DNA of 64,000 nt, taken from IMG/VR virus record IMGVR_UViG_3300047444_000783, positions 1 to 64,000 of that record, one strand, 5' to 3'. A model generated the notes under the pieces. The model saw only the letters and a list, made by a program, of their open reading frames with translations. It was not told the DNA's origin and did not search any database. Source of the DNA: a virus. This document shows, one piece after another, positions 1 to 33,600 of the stretch (the first letter of the stretch is position 1; the number at the start of each line of letters is the position of its first letter). Position numbers and translations under genes: made by a program.

Positions 1-355
1 GTTGACGTTGCGGCCGGACGTGACAAAAAGTGTCACTTGGATAAGGAAAACGAATACATAGAATGAGTAGCTTAGAAGCAACACTAATGCGACTGCCGTA
101 AATTGTCATCGAGCTAGATGTGAGTGTAGTCAAGTCAGATAAAATAGTTTACGCCGTAGAACCAGGCACTTACAGACACGTGTTGTTTAAGGAATTAAAC
201 GGTATTACAGTGACGGCATGGTTCGTATTCACAAGCCGAACGTCTTTAGCGGCCACGCGGTATCCGCCGCAACCGCACCTTGGCGTCAACCCAATGACGC
301 GAATATATACGTTGTCTACTGTGCCGAATCGGCACACTGGAAGGAATTACCTGAT

Positions 356-457
356 ATGAGCACAGACTTTCGCGGCTTCGTCTTGATCGTGACGATCTGC
401 GTGGGAATACTCCTTGTATACGCTGCAATCGCAGCATGGAGGGACAGACGTGGTTAA
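356..457 (+). CDS. small single-TM membrane protein (33 aa)
   Basis: ATG at 356 after AAGGA; MSTDFRGFVLIVTICVGILLVYAAIAAWRDRRG. Confidence 0.55.
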   Translation: MSTDFRGFVLIVTICVGILLVYAAIAAWRDRRG

Positions 458-605
458 AGGATTGAAATGCTTTTGTTTAACCGTGTTCACGGTATCCGCC
501 GGTTTGTTCTTGGCAACCGTCTGGTTCACTGAATACACATGGTGCTTCTTAACGCTGGCGATTGTGAGTGCGTTGTCAGCCATCCTGATGCTGGAGGTCC
601 GATGA
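450..605 (+). CDS. small membrane protein, 2 predicted TM (51 aa)
   Basis: GTG at 450 after GGAGGG; hydrophobic; overlaps both neighbours. Confidence 0.55.
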   Translation: MVKGLKCFCLTVFTVSAGLFLATVWFTEYTWCFLTLAIVSALSAILMLEVR

Positions 606-829
606 GTAAGACGACATTGTTGACGGTTGGGGCGATTAAGAACGCAGTCGAAGCCGGGAACACGGTGTACGCGGGAACGAAGGCGTATCGAGTCATTAAA
701 GACAGTCTTGGTCAATGGCTGATCAAGTGTGATCTGAACGGGTATTGCATCGGCCTGACGTGGAGGGATGGTCAGACGCTGAATGGTAATCCTGGGGATT
801 TCTTCATAGAAAGAGAGGAGTCGAAATGA
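602..829 (+). CDS. hypothetical phage protein
   Basis: ATGA overlap, GGAGG SD; MSKTTLLTVG... Confidence 0.7.
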   Translation: MSKTTLLTVGAIKNAVEAGNTVYAGTKAYRVIKDSLGQWLIKCDLNGYCIGLTWRDGQTLNGNPGDFFIEREESK

Positions 830-1308
830 GACGCGTAGAAATCAAGAGCATGATCGACACAACGTACACGGATGACGAATTGGCAATCGCGGTAGTTGGG
901 AGTTTGTCCTCCCTGCCGGGGATTGAGCGGGTACAGACGTTCGCGCCGCGTGCGATGGATGTGAAAGAGGTTGGGTATTCGCAGCCGATGACCAAGGGAC
1001 GGCAGATGCTGACGGACGTGGTTAACCGATGCGCCAGTGAAGGAGCGCAGGTGATTGAGAACAAACCGTGTGAGCACGTGGATTATGACGAAGCGCAGGA
1101 TGGTCACGTGAAATGCCGCACGTGCGGGTTGGAGGCAGAGATCCAACCGTGCGTGGTCTGCGGTGAGTACAGCGTGCTTGTGGAAGTTGGGGATAGTGAG
1201 AACGTGATTCGACCGTGCGATACCGAAGGTTGCGCGGGTTCCCAAGAGCAAGTGTGTGACGACTGTCGTTCGAACGGTCCGCAGAGCAAGTGCGGACATT
1301 GGAAGTAA
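826..1308 (+). CDS. hypothetical protein with Cys-rich (zinc-binding) C-terminus
   Basis: AGGAG SD, ATGA overlap; CRTC, CVVC and CDDC pairs. Confidence 0.7.
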   Translation: MRRVEIKSMIDTTYTDDELAIAVVGSLSSLPGIERVQTFAPRAMDVKEVGYSQPMTKGRQMLTDVVNRCASEGAQVIENKPCEHVDYDEAQDGHVKCRTCGLEAEIQPCVVCGEYSVLVEVGDSENVIRPCDTEGCAGSQEQVCDDCRSNGPQSKCGHWK

Positions 1309-1365
1309 CGCAGATGGGCGGGGCGATTGCCCCGTTAATGCGGCCTGACGGTCCACAGCCCGTCA
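1309..1365 (+). ncRNA. twister ribozyme copy 1 (type-P5-like permutation), predicted cut U1336^A1337
   Basis: CGCA-GA-UGG-[P1 GCGGGGC/GCCCCGU]-UAA-UGCG-GC-[P4 UGACGG/CCGUCA, loop U-CCA-CA-GC]; T2 UGG:CCA, T1 GC:GC. Confidence 0.9.
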
Positions 1366-1388
1366 AAATCAAACCGCTGGAGATACCG

Positions 1389-1844
1389 ATGGAAACGAAC
1401 TTGGATAAGGTGACAAAGCCTCTGACGCTCGCTGAGTTTCGCGCGACCGGCAGGATTGCGCTGGTTGATGAGACGGGTGAAGTTCATTCGAATGCCGGCC
1501 ACTTCGACGGCGAAGTCTCTTACGGCCGTGTTTACGAATTAGGTTGCTTCATCTACCTGGACATCGACGCAACCCCAACAATTCCCGCCACATGGAGACT
1601 GGTTATCGAGCGTTCCGAGTACGAGGGGAAACTTTCAGACATGGAAGAGGTTTTGTATCGCACGTGGTACCTGCCGGAATGCTGTGGTTACGATCTGGCA
1701 ACCGAAGTCTTTGAGCGGGTGTGTCAGGCGATGCAACCGGCGGAGGAAATGGGCGGACTGACGAGCACGGGCTACATTGATCTGATGATGAAGGTGGCGC
1801 GGGAGGCTGAACGGCGAGCGGTCACGTGCGCCACGCTCAGGTAA
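1389..1844 (+). CDS. hypothetical phage protein
   Basis: GGAG SD then ATG at 1389 (METNLDKV...); the track's longer start runs through the ribozyme. Confidence 0.75.
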   Translation: METNLDKVTKPLTLAEFRATGRIALVDETGEVHSNAGHFDGEVSYGRVYELGCFIYLDIDATPTIPATWRLVIERSEYEGKLSDMEEVLYRTWYLPECCGYDLATEVFERVCQAMQPAEEMGGLTSTGYIDLMMKVAREAERRAVTCATLR

Positions 1845-1845
1845 A

Positions 1846-1902
1846 CGCAGAGGGGCGGGCAGAGATGCCCGTTAATGCGGTCAGCCGGTCCCAACCCCGG
1901 CT
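1846..1902 (+). ncRNA. twister ribozyme copy 2, predicted cut U1873^A1874
   Basis: CGCA-GA-GGG-[GCGGGCA GAGA UGCCCGU]-UAA-UGCG-GU-[AGCCGG U-CCC-AA-CC CCGGCU]; T2 GGG:CCC; T1 has one U.C mismatch. Confidence 0.88.
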
Positions 1903-1928
1903 AAATCAAACCGTGATGGAGTCCACCG

Positions 1929-2414
1929 ATGTCCACTGTTCAACCCACCGTGCTCACCAAAGAGCATATTCACTTCATTCGGAAAGCAAATAAGTCCATC
2001 GTCTTCCGGTACATCCAAGGCCGTCAGTCGATTGAGATTGAGAACGAGATAGGCGCAGAACTGAAGATCGACGCTGGTTTCTACTATCGGGGATACGGGA
2101 ATACGGAACCCGGGACGCCTGAGCGTGAACCGCACAAAGCGTTCGACATGATCCACACACCATCCTGGGACCAGCCTTGGCAGACGGTTATCGCGCTGTT
2201 AAAGCCGGGGGATACGCTGAATGTCCGCTGGTTGGCGAATACGAACGGGTATGTCGAACGCGCGACGTTCGCAGGCGATAAGGATTGCGAATCGTTCAAT
2301 GCTCTGCATATGGATCAGGTTTTCGTGGAGATCGTGCGTGGTAAGCAAGTCCTGACGTTCGCGGTGGGTTTGTCGGTATGCCCGCAGAACAGTGCGCGGA
2401 TGTTCCAATACTGA
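1929..2414 (+). CDS. hypothetical phage protein
   Basis: GGAG SD, 161-aa ORF between ribozymes 2 and 3. Confidence 0.75.
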   Translation: MSTVQPTVLTKEHIHFIRKANKSIVFRYIQGRQSIEIENEIGAELKIDAGFYYRGYGNTEPGTPEREPHKAFDMIHTPSWDQPWQTVIALLKPGDTLNVRWLANTNGYVERATFAGDKDCESFNALHMDQVFVEIVRGKQVLTFAVGLSVCPQNSARMFQY

Positions 2415-2416
2415 AT

Positions 2417-2475
2417 CGCAGAGCGGTCCCCACTTCAGTGGGGATTAATGCGGGCGCACGGTCGCAACCCCGTGC
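2417..2475 (+). ncRNA. twister ribozyme copy 3, predicted cut U2446^A2447
   Basis: CGCA-GA-GCG-[GUCCCCAC UUCA GUGGGGAU]-UAA-UGCG-GG-[GCACGG U-CGC-AA-CC CCGUGC]; T2 GCG:CGC, T1 GG:CC; possible P5 UGAAU(2412-2416):AUUCA(2478-2482). Confidence 0.93.
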
Positions 2476-2498
2476 AAATTCACTCGCAGGAGAATCGA

Positions 2499-3134
2499 AT
2501 GAGAATCAAAGAGACAAAACTCTACAAGTTCGACGAACTGTCAGATCGGGCCAAAGAGAACGCGCGTGACTGGTGGAGACAGATGGAAGCTGAGAGTCAG
2601 GACAATAGCTTCGCAGAGTTTGTGATCGACGATGCGGAGAAGATTGCTGAGATCCTTGGCATTGAACTTAAAACCAGGCCCGTCAAGTTGATGGGAGGAG
2701 GCACGCGCTACGATCCGTGCATCTGGTGGAGTCTCGTGTACTCTCAGGGCGATGGTGCATCGTTCGAAGGACGGTATCGGTATGCGGCGGGGAGCGTGAA
2801 GAAACTAAAAGAGCACGCACCCCAGGATGAGAAGTTGCACCGGATTGTCGAAGGTCTAGCTGCGATCCAGCGGCGCAACTTCTACCGTGGGGTGATCGAC
2901 ATTGGGCAGCGAGGCAACTACACACACTCCTATTCGATGGACTTCAGCGACGTGTCGGACCGTGAATTGTCAGGCGAGGACTATGGCGGCCTGTGTGAAC
3001 TTCTACGCGATTTCGCGGACTGGATCTACCGGCAATTGCAGGCAGAGTACGAGTACCAGAATGCGGATGCTCAGGTAGATGAGGCAATCCAGGCGAACGA
3101 GTACGAGTTTACAGAAGAAGGGAGACGCTCATGA
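2499..3134 (+). CDS. conserved mobile-element protein (family often labelled 'antitoxin of TA stability system'; function unproven)
   Basis: YKFDELSDRAKENARDW, SQGDGASF, WIYRQLQAEYEY and IQANEYEFTEEG motifs; AGGAG SD, ATG at 2499. Confidence 0.7.
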   Translation: MRIKETKLYKFDELSDRAKENARDWWRQMEAESQDNSFAEFVIDDAEKIAEILGIELKTRPVKLMGGGTRYDPCIWWSLVYSQGDGASFEGRYRYAAGSVKKLKEHAPQDEKLHRIVEGLAAIQRRNFYRGVIDIGQRGNYTHSYSMDFSDVSDRELSGEDYGGLCELLRDFADWIYRQLQAEYEYQNADAQVDEAIQANEYEFTEEGRRS

Positions 3135-3379
3135 GCGAAGACAAAGAACTGACGATCTACGAGGCACTGAAAGCCGCGGGCGTACCGCTGGACTCGCACG
3201 AGTCGGACCTGTACGCGCTGGTCACACCCGAGAGCACACGAATTGTCGAAGCGTATCGCTTTCGCTCGAACGTCACGACGTTCGTCAGCCAGATCGACAA
3301 GAAACGCTGGTACGACATTCCATTTGCCTACCTGCCGTTCTGGGAGAAGAAATCGAAAGGGGGTGAGGTTATTGGGTAG
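3131..3379 (+). CDS. hypothetical phage protein
   Basis: ATGA overlap; HESDLY...W.DIPFAY.PFW. Confidence 0.75.
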   Translation: MSEDKELTIYEALKAAGVPLDSHESDLYALVTPESTRIVEAYRFRSNVTTFVSQIDKKRWYDIPFAYLPFWEKKSKGGEVIG

Positions 3380-3383
3380 ATAA

Positions 3384-3453
3384 CGCAGAGGGACGGCCGT
3401 GTGTGTGGAAGCCACGGCCGGTAATGCGGCGGACTGGTTCCCAAGTGCCAGTC
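3384..3453 (+). ncRNA. twister ribozyme copy 4, predicted cut U3422^A3423
   Basis: CGCA-GA-GGG-A[CGGCCGUG..CACGGCCG]G-UAA-UGCG-GC-[GACUGGU U-CCC-AA-GU GCCAGUC]; T2 GGG:CCC, T1 GC:GU. Confidence 0.88.
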
Positions 3454-3479
3454 AAATCACACCGCTGGAGAAATCGACA

Positions 3480-4010
3480 GTGAAACTCGAAATCAAAGGA
3501 CTCAAGACCTGGAAGACGGACGATGGCGGCGGCTACCAGTACACACTAATGGTCGATGGACGGCGCGCGGCATTCGTACATAACGATGGCAATGGTGGCG
3601 GTTCGCGGTTCGATACGACACCGAGAGTGGGAGACGACAAACTGTTTGAGCAATTCGCGGACTACGTGGCAGCCTTACCGTTATCCGCATGGGACCATCC
3701 GATATTGGGCAATCTGTTCGATCCGAAAGAGAACCGTGGAGCATGGTACGAGGAAGCGACGCCTGAAGAACGTGCGCGACACGACCGTGCGAGTAAGGTG
3801 GAGATTTACGCCGAGCGTCTAGTGGATGAGTTTGAAGAGGCGAAACAGATGAAACGATGGTGCGCGAAAAAGACGGTCGTGCGGCTGAAGACGCACAAAC
3901 CGGAACAGTACCTGATCTACCCGATGCCATACACGGCGGCATTCGCTGAGAAGCTACGGGCGAAGCATGGCGAGCAGTTGGTAGAGATCGTAAACGAACG
4001 ATTCGTCTAA
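3480..4010 (+). CDS. hypothetical phage protein
   Basis: GGAG SD, GTG at 3480; NDGNGG motif. Confidence 0.75.
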   Translation: MKLEIKGLKTWKTDDGGGYQYTLMVDGRRAAFVHNDGNGGGSRFDTTPRVGDDKLFEQFADYVAALPLSAWDHPILGNLFDPKENRGAWYEEATPEERARHDRASKVEIYAERLVDEFEEAKQMKRWCAKKTVVRLKTHKPEQYLIYPMPYTAAFAEKLRAKHGEQLVEIVNERFV

Positions 4011-4011
4011 A

Positions 4012-4071
4012 CGCAGACGGGTGGCGTGCGAACGCCACTAATGCGGTCGCTGCCGGTCCGAAACCCGGAGC
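4012..4071 (+). ncRNA. twister ribozyme copy 5, predicted cut U4039^A4040
   Basis: CGCA-GA-CGG-[GUGGCGU GCGA ACGCCAC]-UAA-UGCG-GU-[GCUgCCGG U-CCG-AA-AC CCGGAGC]; T2 CGG:CCG, T1 GU:AC. Confidence 0.93.
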
Positions 4072-4094
4072 AAATTCAACCGCTGGAGATGGAC

Positions 4095-4316
4095 ATGCTT
4101 CAGAAAGACATTCAGAAGGGCAAGTTGTACACGATCAAGCATCATGACGGGCAAATCTACACGGTGCGTGTGGATGGTATCGGTTCGCGCCGAACATTCG
4201 GTTCGCGTGACGGGGTGAGTAAGACGCTCGTGCGGTATCTCTGCACGAAATTGGCAACCGGCAATTCGATCATCGTGAAGTCGGCCGCGAAGTTTCGCGA
4301 GGAGGTAGCCCAATGA
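4095..4316 (+). CDS. small basic SH3/KOW-like hypothetical protein
   Basis: GGAG SD; MLQKDIQKGKLYTIK... Confidence 0.7.
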   Translation: MLQKDIQKGKLYTIKHHDGQIYTVRVDGIGSRRTFGSRDGVSKTLVRYLCTKLATGNSIIVKSAAKFREEVAQ

Positions 4317-4927
4317 TTTTCGAATTCAAGAACATGGTGCAGAAGTCTGACGGCGAGTGGCGCTACCAGACGGCAGAAACTGGCGAGGTCATACGCGTGG
4401 TCGTGCGGTACATCAAGAGTGCGAGCGCCTCGCGTCGAGGTATCCACGTGTCGGTCGAACCCTGGACGATCGAACCGGCAGGAGATCGCGGCTTTTCGAC
4501 TGAATCCACGACCCTGATGTCGGATGCGAGCACGTTTGTCGAGCACCTGGCGCGCATCAAACCGAGTGCGGTCGCGCAAGTTGCGGCAAAGATCGACGCC
4601 CACGCGCCGGCATTCGCTCAATTCTTCCGCCTGGAGGGCCAAGACAAAACCAAACAGGCGTTGAAAGCGTTTTTCGAGGCAGGAACTCTGCCGGTTGTCA
4701 GTACGCAGAGTGTGAGCGTTGAGCGAACGAAGCTGGCGTTGAAGCGTGACCCGCTAGTGCCGGTCGGTCAGACGTCACCATTGCATGTCGATTGCCCGTG
4801 CGGTCGCGCGATCCTGATTATTACTGAGTTAAACGGGTGTCACGGCTGCGGGTTGGTCGTGGACAGTGCCGGTTGGATAAAGGGCAACGATGCTGTTCGC
4901 ACGCCAGACGGTTGGATGTTCATATGA
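4313..4927 (+). CDS. hypothetical protein with C-terminal zinc ribbon
   Basis: GGAGG SD, ATGA overlap; CPCG...CHGC. Confidence 0.7.
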   Translation: MIFEFKNMVQKSDGEWRYQTAETGEVIRVVVRYIKSASASRRGIHVSVEPWTIEPAGDRGFSTESTTLMSDASTFVEHLARIKPSAVAQVAAKIDAHAPAFAQFFRLEGQDKTKQALKAFFEAGTLPVVSTQSVSVERTKLALKRDPLVPVGQTSPLHVDCPCGRAILIITELNGCHGCGLVVDSAGWIKGNDAVRTPDGWMFI

Positions 4928-5052
4928 GTTATCAATTCTGGCCGTCGCAGCGGGATCAGGAGCCGCCCAACCATGGTAACTGGCGCGCGGGTCTGTTCGT
5001 GATCGGAATGATCTGGGGTCTGATCTATCTGATCCTGAGGTTCTTCAGATGA
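4924..5052 (+). CDS. small single-TM membrane protein (42 aa)
   Basis: ATGA overlap; GLFVIGMIWGLIYLIL. Confidence 0.55.
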   Translation: MSYQFWPSQRDQEPPNHGNWRAGLFVIGMIWGLIYLILRFFR

Positions 5053-5105
5053 CGCCACTAACCAAACCACTGACGCGCAGATCAGCGGCTGTCATTCGCA
5101 ACTAG
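5049..5105 (+). CDS. possible 18-aa mini-ORF MTPLTKPLTRRSAAVIRN
   Basis: ATGA overlap with the upstream stop, GAGG upstream; ends 8 nt before ribozyme 6. Confidence 0.35.
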   Translation: MTPLTKPLTRRSAAVIRN

Positions 5106-5113
5106 AAAATAGA

Positions 5114-5170
5114 CGCAGAGCAGCCCCGCCACGGCGGGGTTAATGCGGCGGTCCGGTTGCAAGCCCGGAC
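5114..5170 (+). ncRNA. twister ribozyme copy 6, predicted cut U5141^A5142
   Basis: CGCA-GA-GCA-[GCCCCGC CACG GCGGGGU]-UAA-UGCG-GC-[GUCCGG U-UGC-AA-GC CCGGAC]; T2 GCA:UGC, T1 GC:GC. Confidence 0.93.
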
Positions 5171-5197
5171 TAATTCAACCGCGCAGGATGGAACGAT

Positions 5198-5395
5198 ATG
5201 AAGTACGTAGTTACCGTAACGCAGACAGCCAAAGAACTGTCAGACGTCGATGACATGCAAGACAACCCGTCAGGGAGTTATGAGATTGAGGCGCGGTCTG
5301 CGGATGCGGCGCTTGACGAATTTCACGCAACGGTCCCGATTGGGTGCCTTGAGGACTTCGAAATCATCGTGGAACAGGAGACGACCAATGGTTAG
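5198..5395 (+). CDS. small acidic hypothetical protein
   Basis: 65-aa ORF directly after ribozyme 6. Confidence 0.7.
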   Translation: MKYVVTVTQTAKELSDVDDMQDNPSGSYEIEARSADAALDEFHATVPIGCLEDFEIIVEQETTNG

Positions 5396-5636
5396 GACAT
5401 TCGACGAAACAAAGGACCAGGTGCTCGATTCGCGCACGGGGATCGAGCGCGAGCGCACGCGCATCCTCGTACAGATCTGCAGCTACAACGGCGGTCAGGC
5501 GAAGTTGCAGTTGAAGCGCGAGAACAAGTCGAGCGACGGCTGGACGTTCGCAAAACTGGGGCGCATGACGGGCGAGGAGTTTAGCGAACTCGTGCCGGTC
5601 GCGCTCGAACTGATCGACGCAAACGGGGTGAAGTGA
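5388..5636 (+). CDS. hypothetical protein, possibly PC4-like ssDNA-binding fold
   Basis: AGGAG SD, ATG at 5388; VQICSYNGGQAKLQLKR...KLGRMT pattern; fold is a guess. Confidence 0.55.
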   Translation: MVRTFDETKDQVLDSRTGIERERTRILVQICSYNGGQAKLQLKRENKSSDGWTFAKLGRMTGEEFSELVPVALELIDANGVK

Positions 5637-5637
5637 A

Positions 5638-5892
5638 ATGAAAGAATTTGCATTTGACGTCCAATTGCAAGCGGTTGTTCGCGTCCAGGCGGAGACCGAA
5701 GCGGAGGCGAGGGAGGCGCTTGAGAACATGCAGGCTGTTGATTGCTCTGTTGTTGAGGCGCGGGAGGGCCTAGCGGCTGACGAGGACTCACTGATCGTGC
5801 TAGACCGTGGAACCATGCGCGTCACAGAGATCAGCTCGATACCGACAACGATCCATATGTTTGAACTGGATGGAATTGAGGTAAGTGGATAA
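5638..5892 (+). CDS. acidic hypothetical phage protein
   Basis: VRVQAETEAEAREAL motif, common in small phage proteins. Confidence 0.7.
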   Translation: MKEFAFDVQLQAVVRVQAETEAEAREALENMQAVDCSVVEAREGLAADEDSLIVLDRGTMRVTEISSIPTTIHMFELDGIEVSG

Positions 5893-6059
5893 TGCCAAAC
5901 ATGGAGTACGTCCGATTCGAGAACACATTGCACGATCTTCGCGATTGCCAGGAGCATATGGACGACGAGTTACAGCCTGCCGAAGCGAAGGCACAGTTGC
6001 GGCTGGTCAAACTCTGCAGGCAGATCGCAGGAGACTACGAACACTTAGAATCTGAGTAA
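5892..6059 (+). CDS. small phage protein (55 aa), not in the ORF track
   Basis: TAATG overlap; MPNMEYVRFENTLHDLRDC...; stop 1 nt before ribozyme 7. Confidence 0.7.
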   Translation: MPNMEYVRFENTLHDLRDCQEHMDDELQPAEAKAQLRLVKLCRQIAGDYEHLESE

Positions 6060-6060
6060 T

Positions 6061-6119
6061 CGCAGACCACTGGCGTCTCCGGACGCCAGCAATGCGGGCG
6101 GCCGGTTGGAACCCCGGCC
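6061..6119 (+). ncRNA. twister ribozyme copy 7, predicted cut C6090^A6091
   Basis: CGCA-GA-CCA-[CUGGCGUC UCCG GACGCCAG]-CAA-UGCG-GG-[GGCCGG U-UGG-AA-CC CCGGCC]; T2 CCA:UGG, T1 GG:CC. Confidence 0.9.
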
Positions 6120-6142
6120 AAATTCACTCGCAGGAGAATCCG

Positions 6143-6307
6143 ATGAAGGTACAGAAGTGCACGGAATGCGATAAACGATCATTGCCTGGATTGAAAGCAG
6201 GTAAAGGTAAGTGCCAATACCATTGGAACGTCGGCGTATGGGGAAAACAATGGGCAGATAGGGTCCTCGCTGAAGTTCGAGACTTTTCGAAGCCGAAGGA
6301 GGCATGA
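6143..6307 (+). CDS. small zinc-finger protein (54 aa)
   Basis: AGGAG SD; CTEC...CQYH. Confidence 0.65.
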   Translation: MKVQKCTECDKRSLPGLKAGKGKCQYHWNVGVWGKQWADRVLAEVRDFSKPKEA

Positions 6308-6483
6308 TGTCATTCTCAAAAACGACACAATACGACGGTATCCACATCACCCTTGCCATTGACGACATGGACCTCGTGTGCTGGACAGGCCGGATGCAGG
6401 TGGAAACGCTGGAGATCAAGCATATCCCCGTCGATGTTCAGACGTACATCCGCAAGATCGAGCGGGAGAGGTTCGACTTATGA
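6304..6483 (+). CDS. hypothetical protein (59 aa), not in the ORF track
   Basis: GGAGG SD, ATGA overlaps at both ends. Confidence 0.6.
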   Translation: MMSFSKTTQYDGIHITLAIDDMDLVCWTGRMQVETLEIKHIPVDVQTYIRKIERERFDL

Positions 6484-7349
6484 ACGCCTGGTTGTACGCG
6501 CGCGTCTCCACCTACAGCAATAACTGTAACAACTGCCGAAAGACCTTTCTGGATTCGGCAAAGTCTCCGGTCTGCCCGGTCTGTGGCTCGTCGGATGTGC
6601 AGAAGTCGCAGGATACGGAGAATCAGATGATCGTCCTTCGTCAGTGGATGGCGAGTCTGGGCCACACGGTTACGGCAGTCTACGAGGATCGCGCGAGCGG
6701 CAAGACGGGTGAGCGCGAGCAGTTCAAGAAGATGATGCTCGATATACGGGCGCGCCGGCCGCGGGCACCAATAGTTGTCGGATTCTGGGCGCTCGACCGG
6801 CTGTCGCGTGAGGGCGCGCTCGCGACGCTGAAGTACCTGCAGGACATCACGAACATGGGCGCTCACGTGAAATCGTATACCGAGCAGTACCTGGACACGA
6901 TGGGACCGTGGGGCGAGGCGATCATTGCGTTCCTGGCAACGATTGCCAAGCAGCAGCGCATCCGCCTGGCCGAGAATACGCGAGCCGGGATCGAGCGCGC
7001 GCGGATTCATGGGACGAAGAGCGGGAAGCCGCACGGTCGCCCACAGAAGTTCTCACGTGCGGAGGCACTGGCGATCTTCGAGCAGTTGAAATCGTATCGA
7101 GGGACGGCTAGAGTGCTGGGAGTCTGCCAGACGGCCGTCCGTAACGTCATTCTGGGAAGGCAGGAGGAAGTCCCAACGACAATCGAGTGGAGTGACCCCG
7201 TATGGGGGCGACTCGTCGATGGTCTGTTTGTTGAAGCGGTCGATGGGCGCACGGTCGTGCGGTACGATCTGGGCACGCAGCAGGCGCATTGTTTGAATCA
7301 TCAGCAGTTGCTGTCACTCTGTCGGCATCTGCACACACTAGACGAATAA
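6480..7349 (+). CDS. serine recombinase (resolvase/invertase family) with zinc-ribbon insertion and C-terminal HTH
   Basis: YARVST catalytic Ser, YEDRASG, LDRLSR, TRAGIERAR...GK..GRP, HTH SYRGTARVLGVCQTAV. Confidence 0.9.
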   Translation: MNAWLYARVSTYSNNCNNCRKTFLDSAKSPVCPVCGSSDVQKSQDTENQMIVLRQWMASLGHTVTAVYEDRASGKTGEREQFKKMMLDIRARRPRAPIVVGFWALDRLSREGALATLKYLQDITNMGAHVKSYTEQYLDTMGPWGEAIIAFLATIAKQQRIRLAENTRAGIERARIHGTKSGKPHGRPQKFSRAEALAIFEQLKSYRGTARVLGVCQTAVRNVILGRQEEVPTTIEWSDPVWGRLVDGLFVEAVDGRTVVRYDLGTQQAHCLNHQQLLSLCRHLHTLDE

Positions 7350-7362
7350 AGGAGAAACACAC

Positions 7363-7776
7363 ATGAGCACAAGTATGGTAGTGAACACCCGGAGAGTTGA
7401 GCGCGGTAACCTAAGTAACGAACAGTTCAGCTATGCCCTTGCGCGCGCGCTGTACGAAACACGACAAGAGGCTTACGTGGCAGAATCCGAGGCGAGCGTG
7501 AAGCCTCGCGACGTCGGTTCGGACTTCGACACGGATCGCTTCATCGCCGAGGATGCGGTTGTATTCGACAAGCATCGCGTGAAGGAAGCGTTTGATCTGT
7601 TGGTTCTGGCCGAGGATGCGCTGATCGCGTGGGCAGACAAGTGCGCGCGCCGCAATCTGGGCAAGACGCGGTATCGCCAGATTGAAGAGGTATTCAAGAC
7701 CGCGACATCCAGCGGGATGAAGCACCGGCTGCTCAAGATCTGCATGGAGATGAAAGACGAGAAAGGGGGCGTATGA
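7363..7776 (+). CDS. hypothetical protein
   Basis: AAGGAG SD, 137 aa. Confidence 0.7.
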   Translation: MSTSMVVNTRRVERGNLSNEQFSYALARALYETRQEAYVAESEASVKPRDVGSDFDTDRFIAEDAVVFDKHRVKEAFDLLVLAEDALIAWADKCARRNLGKTRYRQIEEVFKTATSSGMKHRLLKICMEMKDEKGGV

Positions 7777-8027
7777 GCAGACGTTGCCGAGCACCGGAAC
7801 CTGACTGTTACGACTACGTGCGGCGCTATTACGGAGTTCCAGCCTACATTGGAGTGCGCGTACAGGTCGGAGAGAAGGAGGGCGTGATCGTCAAATCGAA
7901 CGGTTCGCCATACGTACACATCAAACTAGACGGAGCGAAGCACGCCAACCCGTACCATCCGACCGATCCAGCCTTGAAGTACCTCATCGAGAGACGGGCT
8001 GGGATCGGTCAGTCGGGGGGCGTATGA
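7773..8027 (+). CDS. hypothetical phage protein (SH3-like)
   Basis: YVRRYYGVPA.IG.RV...G.I...YHPT motif. Confidence 0.75.
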   Translation: MSRRCRAPEPDCYDYVRRYYGVPAYIGVRVQVGEKEGVIVKSNGSPYVHIKLDGAKHANPYHPTDPALKYLIERRAGIGQSGGV

Positions 8028-8554
8028 AGCGCGCTATCCTTGGAATCCTGTTGATGATGCCGGCGGTCGCGCACGCGGCGCCGCCGGTGGTCTTCACGGC
8101 CGATTCGACGGATGGGCCGATACCGACCGATGCGCAAGACTGGCTGATTAACTCCTACATTCCTTCCCGGTGGGAAGCCGAGCGCCAGGTTATTCAGTGG
8201 CTGAACGGGCTGCCGGCGCCGGACGGCCGCGGGATCGTCGTTCACGTTCATATCCATCCGACTCTATTCCAGGGGTTTGATGGTGCCGGGATCGTGGCCG
8301 GGCAGATGGAAAGCCCGGGGTTCAGTCTCGACTATCAGGTCCACGTGGCATGGGACTACGAGATGCAGCGCGGGAACATCGTGCTTTCCCATGAGTTCGG
8401 CCACCTGCTGCAGCTTCTGTCCGGTTGTGCCGGTTGGTGGTATATCGGGCACGGTGTTCCCGAGGACCCGATCCTTCAGAAGTTGCTGGTGATCGGAGCG
8501 CAGGTCTACATGCCTGGACATGTTTACGATCCGTTCAAACCGGAGGTTTATTGA
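8024..8554 (+). CDS. secreted protein with HEXXH zinc-metallopeptidase motif
   Basis: signal peptide ending AVAHA; SHEFGH. Confidence 0.65.
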   Translation: MKRAILGILLMMPAVAHAAPPVVFTADSTDGPIPTDAQDWLINSYIPSRWEAERQVIQWLNGLPAPDGRGIVVHVHIHPTLFQGFDGAGIVAGQMESPGFSLDYQVHVAWDYEMQRGNIVLSHEFGHLLQLLSGCAGWWYIGHGVPEDPILQKLLVIGAQVYMPGHVYDPFKPEVY

Positions 8555-8928
8555 TGAGCAAACACACACCAGGACCGTGGACGCTCGAGGAGCACGGCGG
8601 GGCGTTCTATATCTTTGGACCAGACATGGCGATGATCGCCGACAATGACGATGAGGGCGGGTTCGTGCCAAGGGAAGTTGTCGCGCGCGTGCGTGGAGTC
8701 GGGCGGGGCGCGACGGTTGAGGAGCAACAGGCAAACGGCAAGTTGTTGGCAGCCGCCCCGAAGTTACTCGACGCCTGCAAGTTCGTGCTCGCACTCTTCG
8801 ATAAACTGGAGGCCGAGACCGAGTTGGGAGATCCGTTGCTGAATGTCCGCCGGCGATACCATCTGCCGTACCGTGTCGCGCTAACAGAAGCTATTCTGGA
8901 CGCAGAAAAAGGGGGTGTGTCAGGTTAG
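8554..8928 (+). CDS. conserved phage protein (HTPGPW...AN..LLAAAP family)
   Basis: MSKHTPGPW...QANGKLLAAAPKLL; GGAGG SD. Confidence 0.8.
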   Translation: MSKHTPGPWTLEEHGGAFYIFGPDMAMIADNDDEGGFVPREVVARVRGVGRGATVEEQQANGKLLAAAPKLLDACKFVLALFDKLEAETELGDPLLNVRRRYHLPYRVALTEAILDAEKGGVSG

Positions 8929-8961
8929 GGCGGGTAGAGAATCGAGTCTATAAGCGAACGT

Positions 8962-8995
8962 AGGGCCGGGAAATATTACTCTCCCGGCCCTTTTT
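8962..8995 (+). terminator. intrinsic terminator of the early operon
   Basis: stem AGGGCCGGGA/TCCCGGCCCT followed by a T tract, at the point where the strands converge. Confidence 0.85.
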
Positions 8996-9005
8996 GTATT
9001 TATTG

Positions 9006-27684: not shown

Positions 27685-30600
27685 CTACTGCGGCGGCACC
27701 GGCACTTCGTCAGGCATGAACAGGCTTGGCGGTCCCGGGATCGGCGGCAGTCCCAGATATGGCTGCTGTTCCTTCGGTGTCGATTTGAAGGACTTAGCAT
27801 CGATCTGCTGCTGGAGCGCCATCTTGGACGCCAGCAGGTCCTTTCGTTTCTCCGGGTCAGTCGTCTTACGTAGGACCTCGTCGACGACCCGGATCTGATG
27901 TTCTGGACTCTTCATCATGCGCTCGATATCGCTCGAACCGATGCCGGCCTGGCCTGGGAATGTCGGGTTCGGAGTCTGCCGCGCGTCGTTCCGGTCGATG
28001 ATGCTGGAGATAATAGCGTTCCGGTCGGCCTCGCTGATATTGTCGGCCTCCCATTCGACGTACGCGTTATCCAGTTTCCGCATGTCCTCGTCATGGAAGG
28101 CACCGAGCATCGACTTGTCGTTGTACCAGTCGGCGCGATCTCCCTGGTTCGGATCGACCGAATGGATCCCGAGCGCACGCTTCCAGCCGAACGGGCCGTC
28201 CGACGTCGTCCACTTGTAGAGCAGTGAGTCCGGCGTATCCATCTGCTGGGCGCGCAGGTATTGCATGTACGGTCCGATCAACTGCTTGACGAAGTACTCG
28301 CGCATCAACTGCTTGCCCGTCTCCGTCTGCGGGTAGCCTTTTGCCGGATCTCCCCAGAGGTTCGGTTCGGACTTCGAGACGATCTCTTTGCCGGTGAACG
28401 AGTCGCGGTTTGCGCTGATGTCGTGGAACGCCCGCCCGATCGGATTCAGCATCTGCTCGAGCATCGCACCCGGTGCCGTCGGCCAGGTCGCGCGCGCCTG
28501 ATGTCCAAAGACGTCCTCTGCCTGCTGGCGTGCCGCCTGTTCCCACGTCCATTTACCTTCGAGCACCTTGTCGATGTTTGGTTCAAGCGTATGCAGACCA
28601 AACCAGCGCTTCACGACGTCCGTCGGAAGTTCAAGGTCGATCGTCTCCGGCTTTCCGTCGGCGTCGCGGAATCCCGTGTTGATGTGCGTCATCTCCTTCT
28701 TCCAGTCCGCGACATCCTTCTCGAGATTCGGGTACATGTAATGGTTCCAGATCATGATCGCAACGATCGGCAGCGCGACCGACAGCCAGAACTTATCGCC
28801 CGGGAAGATTTTCCCTTGAGCGGTTGCACGCTTTAGCCACGGTCCGATGATTCCGACGGCGAACGAACTGAACGGGAAGACCGTGCTGTAGACGTACCGC
28901 ATACGCTGGCTGGTTGCCCCGTAGTCGGTCGTCAGTTCGCGAGCCGCCTTACCGGCCGCCATCTCCGGCGGAAGCCCCTTGACGTTCGCGCCGCGCGCGA
29001 TAATCGGCTTACCCTGCTTGATCCGCTCCATGTTGGCTAGGAACGACGCGACCTTCGGCAGGCTGTGCACGATATTCGAGTACCGCTGGAACTCCCGGAG
29101 CATGTCGCCGATCGGATTATTGCCCCACGGGGTGATCTTCTCGAGCGTCGAGGTCTCTCGATACTGGCGGAGGCCTGGCGCGTTCGCCGCTCGAGGAACT
29201 CCGCCGGTCGCCATGAACGTCGAGTTCCAGATCCGCGCTTCCTCCATTAAATCCACAATCTGCTGATATTGTGGTGGCGGTAGTTTCTTGCGCAAGATGT
29301 TGAGTGCTTCCGGCTGCTTGGCCAGCGCTCCCATGTCCTCCGCCCAGAGCGTCATCTGGTTACCGATCGTGATGTGTGTGAAGTAACTCAGGTCCGGCAC
29401 GCCCGTCGTGAGAGTGCTCAGGATCGGCTTGATCGTCGTGACCGACAGTTTCCACGCGTTCGTTGCCGCGCGAATCATCTCACCGAACCCGCTGACGTTA
29501 TTGCTTTCGCGGAAGTGCTCGAGTTTGTCCGCGATCGCCGCCGGCAGAAGGTAAGTCTTGTGCTTACCGCCCAACGCGAGCACGTTCCGCGTCAGATCCT
29601 CTCCCATGTCGGTCATTATCGGCGGCCGGCGCGCGCCTCCGAGTATCGCGTTGCGCAGGTTTGCGATATCGGCGATCAGTTCGTCCGCTCCTAAGTGGAG
29701 CGCATCCTGAACAACTTCCTCGTTGATAGCCTGGACCGGGTAGATAATGTTGCCCGGGTTGAACTGGAATCCCTTCAGAACGTTTCCCGCCTGGTCGCGG
29801 TAGATTTTCCCTGGCTTGACTTGGCCAGACTGTCCGAGTAGCTGAACCAATTGCGGCTGCGTCAGTTTTGGCAGGACATCGTTCTCGGCCGCCGCGCGTT
29901 CGATGAAGTCGTCGATCATGTTGTGGGCGTACGCGCGTGTCCCGTACTGCTCCATCACGTGGATCCAGTCGGCATCGTGCGGCGTCTGGTGACCCACTCG
30001 TTCCTTCAGGTACAGGCGGCGAGGCGTCTGCATGCGGTATGGAAGTCCGGGCATCCGGTCCATCGCATCGCCCAACTCGTGGATCAGCATATTCGGGAAG
30101 TACTTCGCGCGACCGTCGTTCGGATCCGCCTTACCGCGGGAGACGAAGTCGTTCCACATCTCCTCCATCCACTGGTGATGACGGTCTACGGCGTCCAGGA
30201 CGGCAGGAGTTGAAATGGATCTTAGCCGGTTGATCTCAGCGTCGATTCGCGTCAGTTTGCTCGTTCCGGCCAGCGGGATCCGGCTTTCGCCAGACCTCTT
30301 GCCAGTCTCGTACATGTCTTCCCAGAAGATGATACGGCGAAACACGTCATATTCGACCGGATGTAACCCCTTGACGACCCATTCCATTTTCTTCTGAGTC
30401 TGGGCAGCCGCGTCGTTGATGATCTCCAGCGCGCGGCGGATGCGCTCGGCGAATAACGGGAAGTCCTTGATATCCTCGTTGTAGCGGGCGGCCGTCGCAA
30501 ACCGGTAGACCTGTGCCGGTATTGCCCTCATTTTTGTCCAAATGTTGCCCTGCGGCCCCGGCAGACTGTCCAGCCGGCGTATATCAGGATCCGATGACTG

Positions 30601-33600
30601 GACCAGACTCGCCTGGATCGGGGCTGGCTGCCGGCCACGCCAGAAGTTGAGCGCGCCCGCCTCACCCTTCAGTTTAGCGACGACCGCCTGCATGAACGGC
30701 TTGTCCGCCTGCAGGTCTTCGGGCGAGCGCTCCCAATCGCCGATCGGCGCGATACGGTTGCCCATGGCTGCGATACGCGAGATCGGGCCGTGCTCCCCAA
30801 GTGACAAGCCTGACGGCGTATGCGTTAGCGTCCAATTGCCTTTCTTCTCGAGACTCGGGGTCATCGCGAGGCCTGGTGCGATCTGCCATCCTTCTATCGG
30901 TTCGCGCCCATCCTTCCGGGCAGTGTTGACGGTGACCGATCGGTAGGTCTTACCGTCGAGCGTCATCGTCTTGGCGGTCTTGGCAACCGCAGATGGCCCC
31001 TCAACCGGCTTTATTCCTAATGCACTAGGAACGGCCGCCGGGCTGCCTGGCCCTTCGACGGCCGCCGGCACTTTCGGTTCCGCCGGTTCGTTCGCCATCG
31101 CCTCGTGCTCTGGCAGTACCGGCATCCCGCGCTCTTTGTTCTGGGCGATCAACTCCCTCAGCCGCGGGCGGTCCTTCTCGAGTTGCGCGTGGTATTCGCT
31201 GGCCTTCTGATCGGCCGCCTTGACCACGTCCTCGCGCTTCAGCCGCTCCTGCTCGAGCGCTTCGATGCCCGTCCGGTGCTGCTCGATCATCCGCTGCGCG
31301 TAATCCGGGCTGCCGGTCCCGTCCTGGATCTGCTTCGTGTACTCTTCGATGCGCGCCTGGCGGCCGGCGATCTCGTTGTTGACCTTCTCGAGCATCCGCC
31401 GCGCTTCGACGATGTCGTCGCCTTCGACGTCCTTGAGTTTCTTCTCGGTCTCGGTAATCCGCCGACTCGTCTGCCAGTACTCGAGCGTCGACGGATCGAT
31501 CTGGGCGTCCGCTGATATATCAGCGTAGTTGCGGTGATCCTGGTCGAAGTCCATGACTTCGTTCGAATCGCCGAACCACAGTTCCTCTAACCACTTTGCT
31601 TTACGCGCCAGCACCGCGTACATCTTCGCGTCCGACGTCCCCTTACCGACGTACCGGTGGACCCGGACAATCCCGCGCGGAAGTCCTGTCTTCTTATCGA
31701 TGTTGCCCTGACGGACTCCGCGGCCTTCACGCTGCTCGAGCGCGGCCGGCGTCCACGGCACATCGTAGTGGTGGATGTCAGTCGTACTGGACTGCAGGTT
31801 CATGCCCTCGCCCATCGAGGCGGTTGTCCCGATCAGGAATCGGATCTTGCCTTCGGCGTTCGCCTGCTGAACCGCAAACTTCTTCTTCGGCCCGTTGTTC
31901 GAACCCTGGTTAATGATCGCGATCTGGTCTTCAGGAATACCGAGCGCCATCAGGGCTTTCTTGAGTTCTTTGTGGATGTTGACCAGTTCATAGGTCTTCA
32001 TCTTGACCTTCGCGTCCGGATCCACCGGCCCCGGCGCTGGCGTCACGCTCGGATCGACTGCCGAATTCGCTTCGTCCTCGCCTTCGGTACTCTCGTCGGC
32101 CGACAGATTGCCGGAGTCATCCTCGACGTCGATCGCCTTGATGTGATCCTCGTTCCCATCCTCGAGGAACATCTTGATCAGCCGTTCCTGATCGCCTCCG
32201 ACCGGCACACGTGCGATCGCGCGGTAGAGATCCATGAAGATCAGTTGCGTATTGTCGCCCTGGTCGGACTGCTTCACCTGCTGGATGATCTCGTGGAGTT
32301 TGGATCCTTCACGGCCGAGCAGCTTGCGGTAACGAATTGGGTTGTAGACCGCCAGATCGGCTGCGAGTTTGCGCGCGACCGTCAACAGGTTGATCGGGAT
32401 CCAGCCGTTCGCCGCCGCTTCCTTGAAGTTCCGCGTGATCCAGTCGTCAATGTCAGCGATACGTGCGGCTTCGAAACTGGTCTCAGGCGACGGATTGAGA
32501 ACGTGCTCGACGTACTGCGCCGTAGGCCGCTGCAGGGCGAACGCGCTCGTCGGCCGCATGTCGATATAGCGGCGGAAGATTGGCCGCAGGTCGTTCATGT
32601 TCTTATAGCCAATAAAATTCACGCGGATCTTTGGCACGCCAGTCGTGCCGGCTTCTTCCGTCTGGCCGACGATCCCGAAGTTATTGACGAACTGCCCTGC
32701 GTCGTTGATGCCGCGGTCCCTCCACTCATCGGGCGCAACATACTGCAGCATGTTGTAGATCTCGATCGGATTATTTGGCGTCGGCGTGGCCGTCAATCCC
32801 CAGACGTTCTGGCCCTTACGCCCGGACTTGCGTTCGTGAATATAGCGGGTCTTGTACAGCATGTCGGCCGCGCGCTGCGAGTACGAGGCCGCGTGCAGCC
32901 ATTCCGACATGTCCATGTACTGGACTGGTGCGTTTTTGTAGTTATGTAACTCGTCCCCAATGATGGAATCGATGCCCGTATCCTCGAAGAAGATTGCGTT
33001 CGTCTTCTTCATGTCCTGGATCGCCGCAAGTTTGCCGCGCATCTTGCGGATCTGCTCCTGGATCACGGTCTCCATCTTCCGGTTCGCCTGGGCACCCGTC
33101 TTCTCCTTCATCTGGCGTAGACGGTCCTCGTACTGCCGGATGTCTTCCTCGAAGTAGTCTTCAGCCGCGCGCAGCGGGATTTCCTTCATCCCCTCGTACG
33201 TCGCAATGATGTAGTCGGGGCTGGACATCGCCACCTGATGGAGCATCCGGTTGCGATTCTTCGAGTTCATTTCGCTCAGGTTGAGGATCTGGGCGGTCGG
33301 GAACAACTCTCCTATCTCATACGCCCAGTTGCCAGCGACCTTGGCTGGCACGACAAGCAGCGGTTTATTGATCAGCCCGCGCTGACGAGCAATCGCGATC
33401 ATCGTGATCGCCTGGCTGGTCTTTCCGGCGCCTACGCCGTGTGCATTAATTCCCGAGCGTGTGCGTAATAATTGCTCAGTCGCCTCCCACTGGTGTTTAT
33501 GAATAGCCAGCGGCTTGCCCTTGAAATTAGCAGCCAACCCTTCGATGGCCTGCTCCTTGCCTTCGAATGATGGATGGCGGAACGATCGGAACATCCGGTT

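Follow-up and report, generated by a model that had tools for sequence, protein, structure and literature searches.

Seven type-P5 twister ribozymes between gene blocks of a tailed phage, and their probable role in processing a polycistronic message

Introduction

Why would a phage place seven self-cleaving ribozymes, all of one class, between consecutive blocks of small genes near one end of its genome? The question is raised by positions 1309 to 6119 of virus record IMGVR_UViG_3300047444_000783 in IMG/VR, a record of 109,586 bp from an uncultivated phage that CheckV rates as 100% complete; the window analysed here is its first 64 kb (64,000 nt). A sequence-only reading of this stretch had recognised seven intergenic elements as twister ribozymes, and had proposed that they cut the transcript of an early operon into separate messages. 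Twisters are the class of Roth et al. 2014, as that work is summarised in later papers (PMC5408937, PMC10085705). The purpose of self-cleaving ribozymes in bacteria and phages is a standing question to which the array speaks. The analysis described below fully supports the identification of the elements, and makes block-by-block cutting of one message their probable function.

Identity of the seven elements

When the Rfam model for Twister-P5 (RF02684, clan CL00120) was scanned over the whole window, it matched seven times, always on the + strand and with scores of 44.1-59.1 bits against a gathering score of 37.6 bits (Table 1). Twister-P5, rather than P1 or P3, is the best-scoring member of the clan at the array sites. 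The whole 109,586-bp record has no RF02684 match beyond the same seven, a permissive Rfam scan of the window (E<=1) returned no other family, and the remaining 45.6 kb of the record contain no ribozyme, with 32 tRNA genes instead. A covariance model built from the seven copies and run unfiltered over 1-12 kb gave these copies 58-75 bits, the next best match reaching 9.6 bits.

All seven copies parse into a common twister scaffold, just as the sequence-only reading had maintained. Each begins with CGCA (the 3' strand of P2), GA, a 3-nt strand of pseudoknot T1, a closed P1 hairpin and N^AA, where the caret marks the predicted cut, and continues with UGCG (the 5' strand of P2), a 2-nt strand of pseudoknot T2, a short linker and P4. 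The loop of P4 consists of U, the three T1 partners, AA and the two T2 partners, giving U-NNN-AA-NN in six of the copies and CA in place of the consensus AA in copy 1. The parse confirms that this is the P5 permutation, in which P1 is closed by a loop and the ends lie between P4 and the 3' strand of P2. CGCAGA and AAUGCGG do not vary among the seven copies, and the G of the invariant GA is what we take, from the crystal structures of twisters, to be the catalytic guanine.

The P1 stems are GC-rich and 7-9 bp long; that of copy 4 has 8 bp with an A-G mismatch at its base, and a longer loop. P4 has 6 bp throughout except in copy 5, where it has 7 bp and a single bulged G. A P5 stem was looked for by eye, and no consistent pairing was seen between the flanks 5' of CGCA and 3' of P4. 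The unconstrained minimum-free-energy (MFE) fold is the native P2-P1-P4 structure in each of the seven precursors, and the seven cut sites predicted earlier (Table 1) were reproduced by the parse.

The pairing was tested on an alignment (A2) with the full pseudoknotted structure, using 3' partners slid by 1-3 columns and 500 shuffles as controls. Standard pairs occupied 95.7% of the cells, compared to 34-42% with slid partners; changes on both sides were found in 16 of the 23 pairs, and none of the 500 shuffles matched any observed measure. The two-sided changes involve all eight pairs of P1, four of the six in P4 and all three in T1, which is 100% paired, whereas P2 is paired in all copies and invariant, and hence uninformative for covariation. 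Strands were also compared with partners from other copies. T1 was fully paired in 7/7 cognate and 4/42 non-cognate combinations, the 6 bp of P4 in 6/7 and 1/42, and T2 in 6/7 and 17/42. The earlier claims on this point therefore hold: the T1 triplets are always complementary, T2 is complementary in six copies, and the stems vary in sequence and stay paired. The sole T2 exception is copy 2, in which one mismatch leaves a single pair. The diversity of P1, P4 and T1 would be expected to limit misfolding between copies in one RNA, as well as DNA recombination between them.

Copies 1 and 2 each show one deviation from the consensus, and the elements might for this reason be viewed as inactive relics or as selfish passengers that play no part in the expression of phage genes. 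That view seems exceedingly unlikely when set against the seven intact cores, the compensatory changes across four helices and the strict position and strand of the copies. Furthermore, there are no decayed extra copies in 1-12 kb, since the background of the model built from the array stays below 10 bits. The assignment of all seven elements to the type-P5 twisters, as ordinary members of a known family, is fully supported by the Rfam scores, the covariation in P1, P4, T1 and T2, and the invariant core.

Placement of the ribozymes

The array lies in a run of small open reading frames (ORFs) on the + strand that extends from about position 120 to ~8.9 kb, beyond which the genes are on the - strand. 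When the start codons of the array ORFs are picked by their Shine-Dalgarno (SD) sequences, genes within a block overlap or abut, so that between 1308 and 6143 no sizeable spacer is left except the ribozyme modules. All copies are on the coding strand, and they separate blocks of one to four genes, every one of which is on the + strand. A leader of 23-27 nt follows each copy; it contains GGAG, or GGAU in the case of copy 6, and the start codon comes 5-8 nt past this motif.

Three points of the sequence-only reading need adjustment here. The copies do not separate every gene; what they separate is seven blocks of one to four translationally coupled genes. Each copy had been placed 0-8 nt after a stop codon, and this is true of six, which begin 0-4 nt past the preceding stop. 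Copy 6 begins 61 nt past the stop of the 42-aa ORF 4924-5052; that stop, at 5052, is the nearest ORF stop, and the TAG triplets just 5' of the copy close no ORF of at least 20 aa. Finally, the label "early operon" went too far, in that the genes are orphans at the left contig end and timing is not readable from sequence. Early expression is a reasonable guess from the size and position of the genes.

Table 1. Ribozymes, leaders and gene blocks of the array (window coordinates; anti-P2, leader strand complementary to the P2 5' strand; cut sites are predicted)
Feature	Position	Strand	RF02684 match	Bits	Cut after	T1	T2	Details
Punctuated orphan-gene run	826-6307	+						small ORFs split by seven twister modules
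Block before copy 1	826-1308	+						ORF
Twister-P5 copy 1	1309-1365	+	1309-1363	55.2	U1336	UGG/CCA	GC/GC	P4 6 bp; starts 0 nt past stop at 1306-1308
Leader after copy 1	1366-1388	+						anti-P2 1374-1377; GGAG 1379-1382; ATG 1389
Block copies 1-2	1389-1844	+						ORF
Twister-P5 copy 2	1846-1902	+	1846-1900	59.1	U1873	GGG/CCC	GU/CC	starts 1 nt past stop at 1842-1844
Leader after copy 2	1903-1928	+						anti-P2 variant CCGU 1911-1914; GGAG; ATG 1929
Block copies 2-3	1929-2414	+						ORF
Twister-P5 copy 3	2417-2475	+	2417-2473	55.3	U2446	GCG/CGC	GG/CC	starts 2 nt past stop
Leader after copy 3	2476-2498	+						anti-P2 UCGCA 2484-2488; GGAG; ATG 2499
Block copies 3-4	2499-3134, 3131-3379	+						ORFs
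Twister-P5 copy 4	3384-3453	+	3384-3451	47.9	U3422	GGG/CCC	GC/GU	starts 4 nt past stop
Leader after copy 4	3454-3479	+						anti-P2 CCGC 3462-3465; GGAG; GTG 3480
Block copies 4-5	3480-4010	+						ORF
Twister-P5 copy 5	4012-4071	+	4012-4068	46.0	U4039	CGG/CCG	GU/AC	starts 1 nt past stop
Leader after copy 5	4072-4094	+						anti-P2 CCGC 4080-4083; GGAG; ATG 4095
Block copies 5-6	4095-4316, 4313-4927, 4924-5052	+						ORFs
Twister-P5 copy 6	5114-5170	+	5114-5168	57.7	U5141	GCA/UGC	GC/GC	
Leader after copy 6	5171-5197	+						anti-P2 CCGCG 5179-5183; GGAU; ATG 5198
Block copies 6-7	5198-5395, 5388-5636, 5638-5892, 5892-6059	+						ORFs
Twister-P5 copy 7	6061-6119	+	6061-6117	44.1	C6090	CCA/UGG	GG/CC	starts 1 nt past stop at 6057-6059
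Leader after copy 7	6120-6142	+						anti-P2 UCGCA 6128-6132; GGAG; ATG 6143
Block after copy 7	6143-6307 and onward	+						ORFs

Proposed processing of the message

The seven copies are probably functional type-P5 twisters within one + strand transcription unit, where they would cut a polycistronic mRNA block by block. One long message would most likely be cut into seven or eight pieces. In this process, each copy would fold co-transcriptionally, forming P2, P1, P4, T1 and T2 as in characterised twisters, and would then cleave itself 5' of the invariant AA, one nucleotide past P1. The upstream product would keep its stop codon and would end in the 7-9-bp P1 hairpin plus one nucleotide with a 2',3'-cyclic phosphate; fold prediction forms the P1 hairpin in all seven 5' products. 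The downstream product would carry a 5'-OH, AAUGCGG, the P4 hairpin and the standard leader with its ribosome-binding site. The expected units are 537, 573, 976, 617, 1102 and 949 nt plus the flanking pieces, and these sizes, which the sequence-only reading had also given, follow from the cut sites. With hairpins capping its ends and a 5' untranslated region (UTR) common to all units, a block could have its stability and translation uncoupled from those of its neighbours. What the sequence establishes is the identity, covariation and placement of the elements; co-transcription, cleavage and the effects on stability and translation we infer. Processing of a polycistronic transcript into gene-sized units, as claimed earlier, is in keeping with the layout and would be our preferred interpretation of it.

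A scan of 1-10 kb for the sigma-70 and intrinsic-terminator consensus sequences gave no promoter-like site inside the array and no + strand terminator-like site at a gene junction, the sole + strand terminator-like match in 1-10 kb being at 5718-5735, inside ORF 5638-5892. This is weak evidence for a single transcript, as only these two consensus types were covered. Several observations weigh against the proposal. The same scan located neither the promoter nor the end of the putative transcript. A conserved loop A is replaced by C in copy 1, and a T2 pair is broken in copy 2; these two copies may be slower as a consequence. One array gene has its nearest homologue (53% identity) in a tightly packed operon free of ribozymes, and the ribozymes are accordingly not bound to specific genes. 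The last point concerns the products, in that RNAs with a 5'-OH are degraded by RNase J1 in Firmicutes and are stable in E. coli, as studies of glmS have indicated, and the fate of the pieces would thus depend on the host.

Two sequences at the start of the contig may bear on transcription of the + strand run. Positions 1-119 of the window are non-coding and contain a perfect inverted repeat, GTGACA-5 nt-TGTCAC, at 20-36. On its 3' side, at 37-64, is TTGGAT-16 nt-TAGAAT, which falls below the threshold of the scan. The repeat and the TTGGAT/TAGAAT pair could be an operator and a weak promoter for the run.

The predicted ends suggest a different use of the cuts. Flanking ribozymes would yield a 5'-OH and a 2',3'-cyclic phosphate, the end chemistry that RtcB needs, and the excised units could then be substrates for an RtcB-type ligase that circularises or joins them into functional RNA, a possibility raised by Perreault et al. 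for hammerhead arrays (PMC3088659). The same authors sought spliced or circular products and found none (PMC3088659). Neither RtcB nor an enzyme of the RNA_ligase family (PF09414) was found in the phage genome, and ligation or circularisation by a phage enzyme was rejected as a candidate. A ligase-dependent function of the array as a whole seems most improbable.

A leader strand complementary to P2

The seven leaders resemble each other in more than their SD sequences. In each, an A-rich linker precedes YCGC(A/U/G), whose offset is constant (9 nt past P4 and directly 5' of the GGAG), and the leaders after copies 3 and 7 are identical over their first 21 nt. The YCGC strand is complementary to UGCGG, that is, to the 5' strand of P2 plus the first T2 base, and its pairing there (called anti-P2 pairing below) would consequently exclude the active fold. 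Such an alternative stem is present in the MFE structure of five of the seven free 3' products; in that of copy 1, for example, GCGG is paired with CCGC. When the 5' CGCA is blocked, the alternative stem becomes the MFE structure in all copies except copy 6. In the precursors, the native fold is favoured over the alternative by 0.9-3.5 kcal/mol, with tertiary contacts uncounted.

An anti-P2 strand is also enriched 3' of Twister-P5 copies in unrelated viral contigs. The external set consists of 23 further copies in other viral contigs, several of the loci being mutually related. A loose DNA pattern for twisters gave mostly chance matches, in that 14 of 100 loci scanned with the model, taken from among the matches listed, had a match, and a DNA pattern that included the leader yielded 14 loci and no twisters. 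A Watson-Crick 4-mer complementary to UGCGG within 15 nt past P4 occurs in 6/7 of the array's own copies (background 0.105), which are paralogues and not independent, and in 11/23 external copies (background 0.13; P about 5e-5, in a test designed after the pattern had been seen). With one copy per locus, the same post hoc test gives 7/17 (background 0.117; P about 0.002). A looser criterion that allows G-U pairs was not significant. One external copy with a P2 strand of UGUGG carries CCAC in its tail. The published family model contains no anti-P2 strand, and a leader strand that can re-pair with the freed P2 strand is possibly a new feature, for which these results are suggestive only.

What could such a strand do? 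The folding predictions are compatible with a leader that is a working part of the device: after cleavage, YCGC would capture the freed UGCGG, displacing the upstream fragment and preventing reversal of the cut, and a 5'-terminal stem would form around P4 and abut the SD. This is a possible role for the leader, and we hold it only tentatively. If it is true, the twister and its leader would together act as a natural insulator of a cleave-then-refold kind, and ribosome binding might be coupled to it.

The same strand could instead make each module a two-state switch rather than a constitutive cutter, with anti-P2 competing with the 5' CGCA for UGCGG so that cleavage or SD exposure would be coupled to ribosome binding at the downstream start or to release of the upstream fragment. 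The common offset in all seven leaders, the predicted stems, the 4-mer enrichment and the external UGUGG/CCAC pair would all be expected of a switch. However, pre-cleavage competition looks weak, because the native fold is the more stable one even before tertiary contacts are considered. The enrichment is open to the objections given above, namely its post hoc design, the relatedness of the seven copies and of several external loci, and the result when G-U pairs are allowed. In addition, UGCGG is invariant in the window, which precludes any covariation signal there, and eight of the 23 external copies are without such a strand. We therefore consider a switch unlikely, and retain constitutive cutting of the message as the preferred function of the ribozymes.

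Two external cases illustrate how leaders vary in context. A complete 43-kb viral contig (L140) has two Twister-P5 copies 400 nt apart (G006:40868-41334) and a leader, CAAUCUCACCGCAGGAG, that closely resembles those after copies 3 and 7 of the array; no detectable gene is common to the two phages. Five other viral contigs (L096, L089, L031, L104 and L109) carry a Twister-P5 subgroup with an extra P3 hairpin before P4. In this subgroup, AA-CGCA or CGCU follows directly past P4 (in L096 and L089, CGCA is 9 nt past P4). There is no SD or start codon downstream, a context that differs from that of the SD-linked copies.

A further idea about the new 5' ends was rejected, namely that the AUG in AAUGCGG, 1 nt from the end, would start a leaderless mRNA. 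This AUG is in frame with the next gene, through an open frame, in four of the seven copies and in 3/17 elsewhere, which is about the chance level. The in-frame AUGs of the array are at window positions 1338, 2448, 4041 and 6092.

Genes of the run and the phage

The genes between the ribozymes offer few hints. None of the 20 tested ORFs of the run matched Pfam or NCBIfam, and PHROGs gave nothing usable on the function of the array genes; ORF 2499-3134 is a member of phrog_5162, a family of unknown function. A megablast of positions 1-9000 against cultured phages gave no match. IMG/VR searches seeded with the proteins of four genes returned the 53% homologue mentioned above and two remote ones (29-32% identity), and the two contigs with homologues of an array gene contained no twister and no other Rfam family. 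Just past the last ribozyme, in the same run, is a gene for a small serine recombinase (6378-7349, +; Resolvase N-terminal domain, 7.6e-22).

Unrelated orphan genes without close IMG/VR relatives, modules exactly at the block boundaries and a homologue elsewhere that lacks ribozymes would also be found if the modules served genome plasticity. They would then be conserved boundaries for cassette recombination, comparable to the promoter-stem-loop cassettes of T4-type phages, with cleavage as a secondary function. This explanation is very unlikely. The stretches that the modules have in common are very short (6-7-nt core blocks and a leader of ~20 nt), the compensatory divergence of P1 and P4 keeps the RNA structure and lowers DNA homology, and the catalytic core is intact in all seven copies.

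Beta-helix spikes, a tail-fibre protein, an amidase and other phage genes are encoded in the window, and the source is accordingly identified, from its gene content, as a tailed phage. Elsewhere in the window are genes for a VapE-like primase/helicase, a helicase, an SMC-like ATPase and an exonuclease; the nearest cultured relatives of the primase belong to phages of Ralstonia, Burkholderia and Acidovorax, at no more than 35% identity. A 4179-aa ORF (27685-40224, -) matches DarB-like antirestriction, DNA methyltransferase and helicase PHROGs and has the character of a giant polyvalent protein. Early transcription of the N4 type, by a virion RNA polymerase, was considered and rejected, in that this ORF matches the DarB-like methyltransferase/helicase families instead. 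The 32 tRNA genes form a dense array on the - strand near the right genome end (100.0-104.3 kb of the record; L137:3070-7239).

Comparison with known systems

Compared to the RF02684 family, the seven copies show the same order of elements, all score above the curated cut-off, and their helices and pseudoknots covary. They differ from the model in having a P4 of 6-7 bp, where the model has 3 pairs, and in the conserved leader with an anti-P2 strand on the 3' side of the ribozyme, which the model lacks.

The proposed outcome also recalls phage T7, in which early mRNA is reportedly processed by RNase III, according to work of Dunn and Studier. In both cases a polycistronic phage transcript would be cut in its spacers, and the upstream message would end in a 3' hairpin. 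The T7 reaction uses a host protein enzyme and long duplex sites and produces a 5'-phosphate and a 3'-OH, whereas here the RNA would cut itself and leave a 5'-OH and a cyclic phosphate. The spacers of the array have no long duplex RNase III sites, only the P1 stems of 7-9 bp and the P4 stems of 6-7 bp, and the P1 stems are too short to be such sites. The likeness to T7 is thus an analogy of outcome and does not imply membership in the same system.

A formal parallel is found in engineered operons. Every gene of a synthetic operon can be given its own RiboJ or VtmoJ insulator (Lou et al. 2012, cited through PMC6993053), and ribozyme-plus-hairpin parts in this position raise expression and mRNA stability in engineered operons (PMC6993053). 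The order of ribozyme, hairpin and exposed ribosome-binding site is the same as in the array, and each cistron likewise has the same 5' UTR whatever lies upstream. The insulators are man-made and based on hammerheads, whereas the array is natural and based on twisters, with the ribozyme's own P4 in the place of the hairpin.

The nearest natural precedent removes much of the novelty that the sequence-only reading had claimed. In 2011, Perreault et al. described clustered hammerheads that flank prophage genes and cleave both in vitro and in E. coli (PMC3088659), and processing of long phage transcripts into mRNAs the length of a gene or an operon was proposed as the function of such arrays (PMC3088659; reviewed in PMC6765202), the same role as that suggested here. 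The two cases have in common several ribozymes on one strand of phage DNA, flanking single genes or short blocks of unrelated function. They differ in ribozyme class, in copy number (seven twisters rather than two or three hammerheads) and in the very regular placement of the twisters, directly past a stop and at a fixed distance before an SD. Furthermore, triple hammerhead arrays were shown to cleave in vitro and in E. coli, whereas the cleavage of the twister array is a prediction.

Clustering near phage genes is itself a stated property of twisters: enrichment close to phage genes and to one another has been reported for them and for other classes of self-cleaving ribozyme (PMC4604425, PMC10085705). 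Ten other viral records with Twister-P5 have copy numbers of 1, 4, 1, 2, 1, 3, 1, 1, 1 and 1; in the multi-copy cases the copies are on one strand within 0.5-5 kb, and most external copies show the same layout as the array, with a stop, the twister, a short leader, an SD and an ATG. The claim of novelty is further reduced by these contigs with two to four copies. The literature search, which covered the original twister papers (Roth 2014, Weinberg 2015) through papers citing them, found no description of a seven-copy twister array. A 2019 review regarded the role of phage ribozyme arrays as unproven and in need of additional work (PMC6765202), and a 2023 paper stated that no reason is yet known for the clustering of ribozymes near phage genes and near one another (PMC10085705). 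Set beside these systems, the array is a clean example of an arrangement that has been proposed for phages since 2011 and no new kind of element. It is also a compact and very regular object for tests of that proposal: its seven ribozymes are intact, the fragment sizes are predicted, the leader is uniform and the helices vary naturally.

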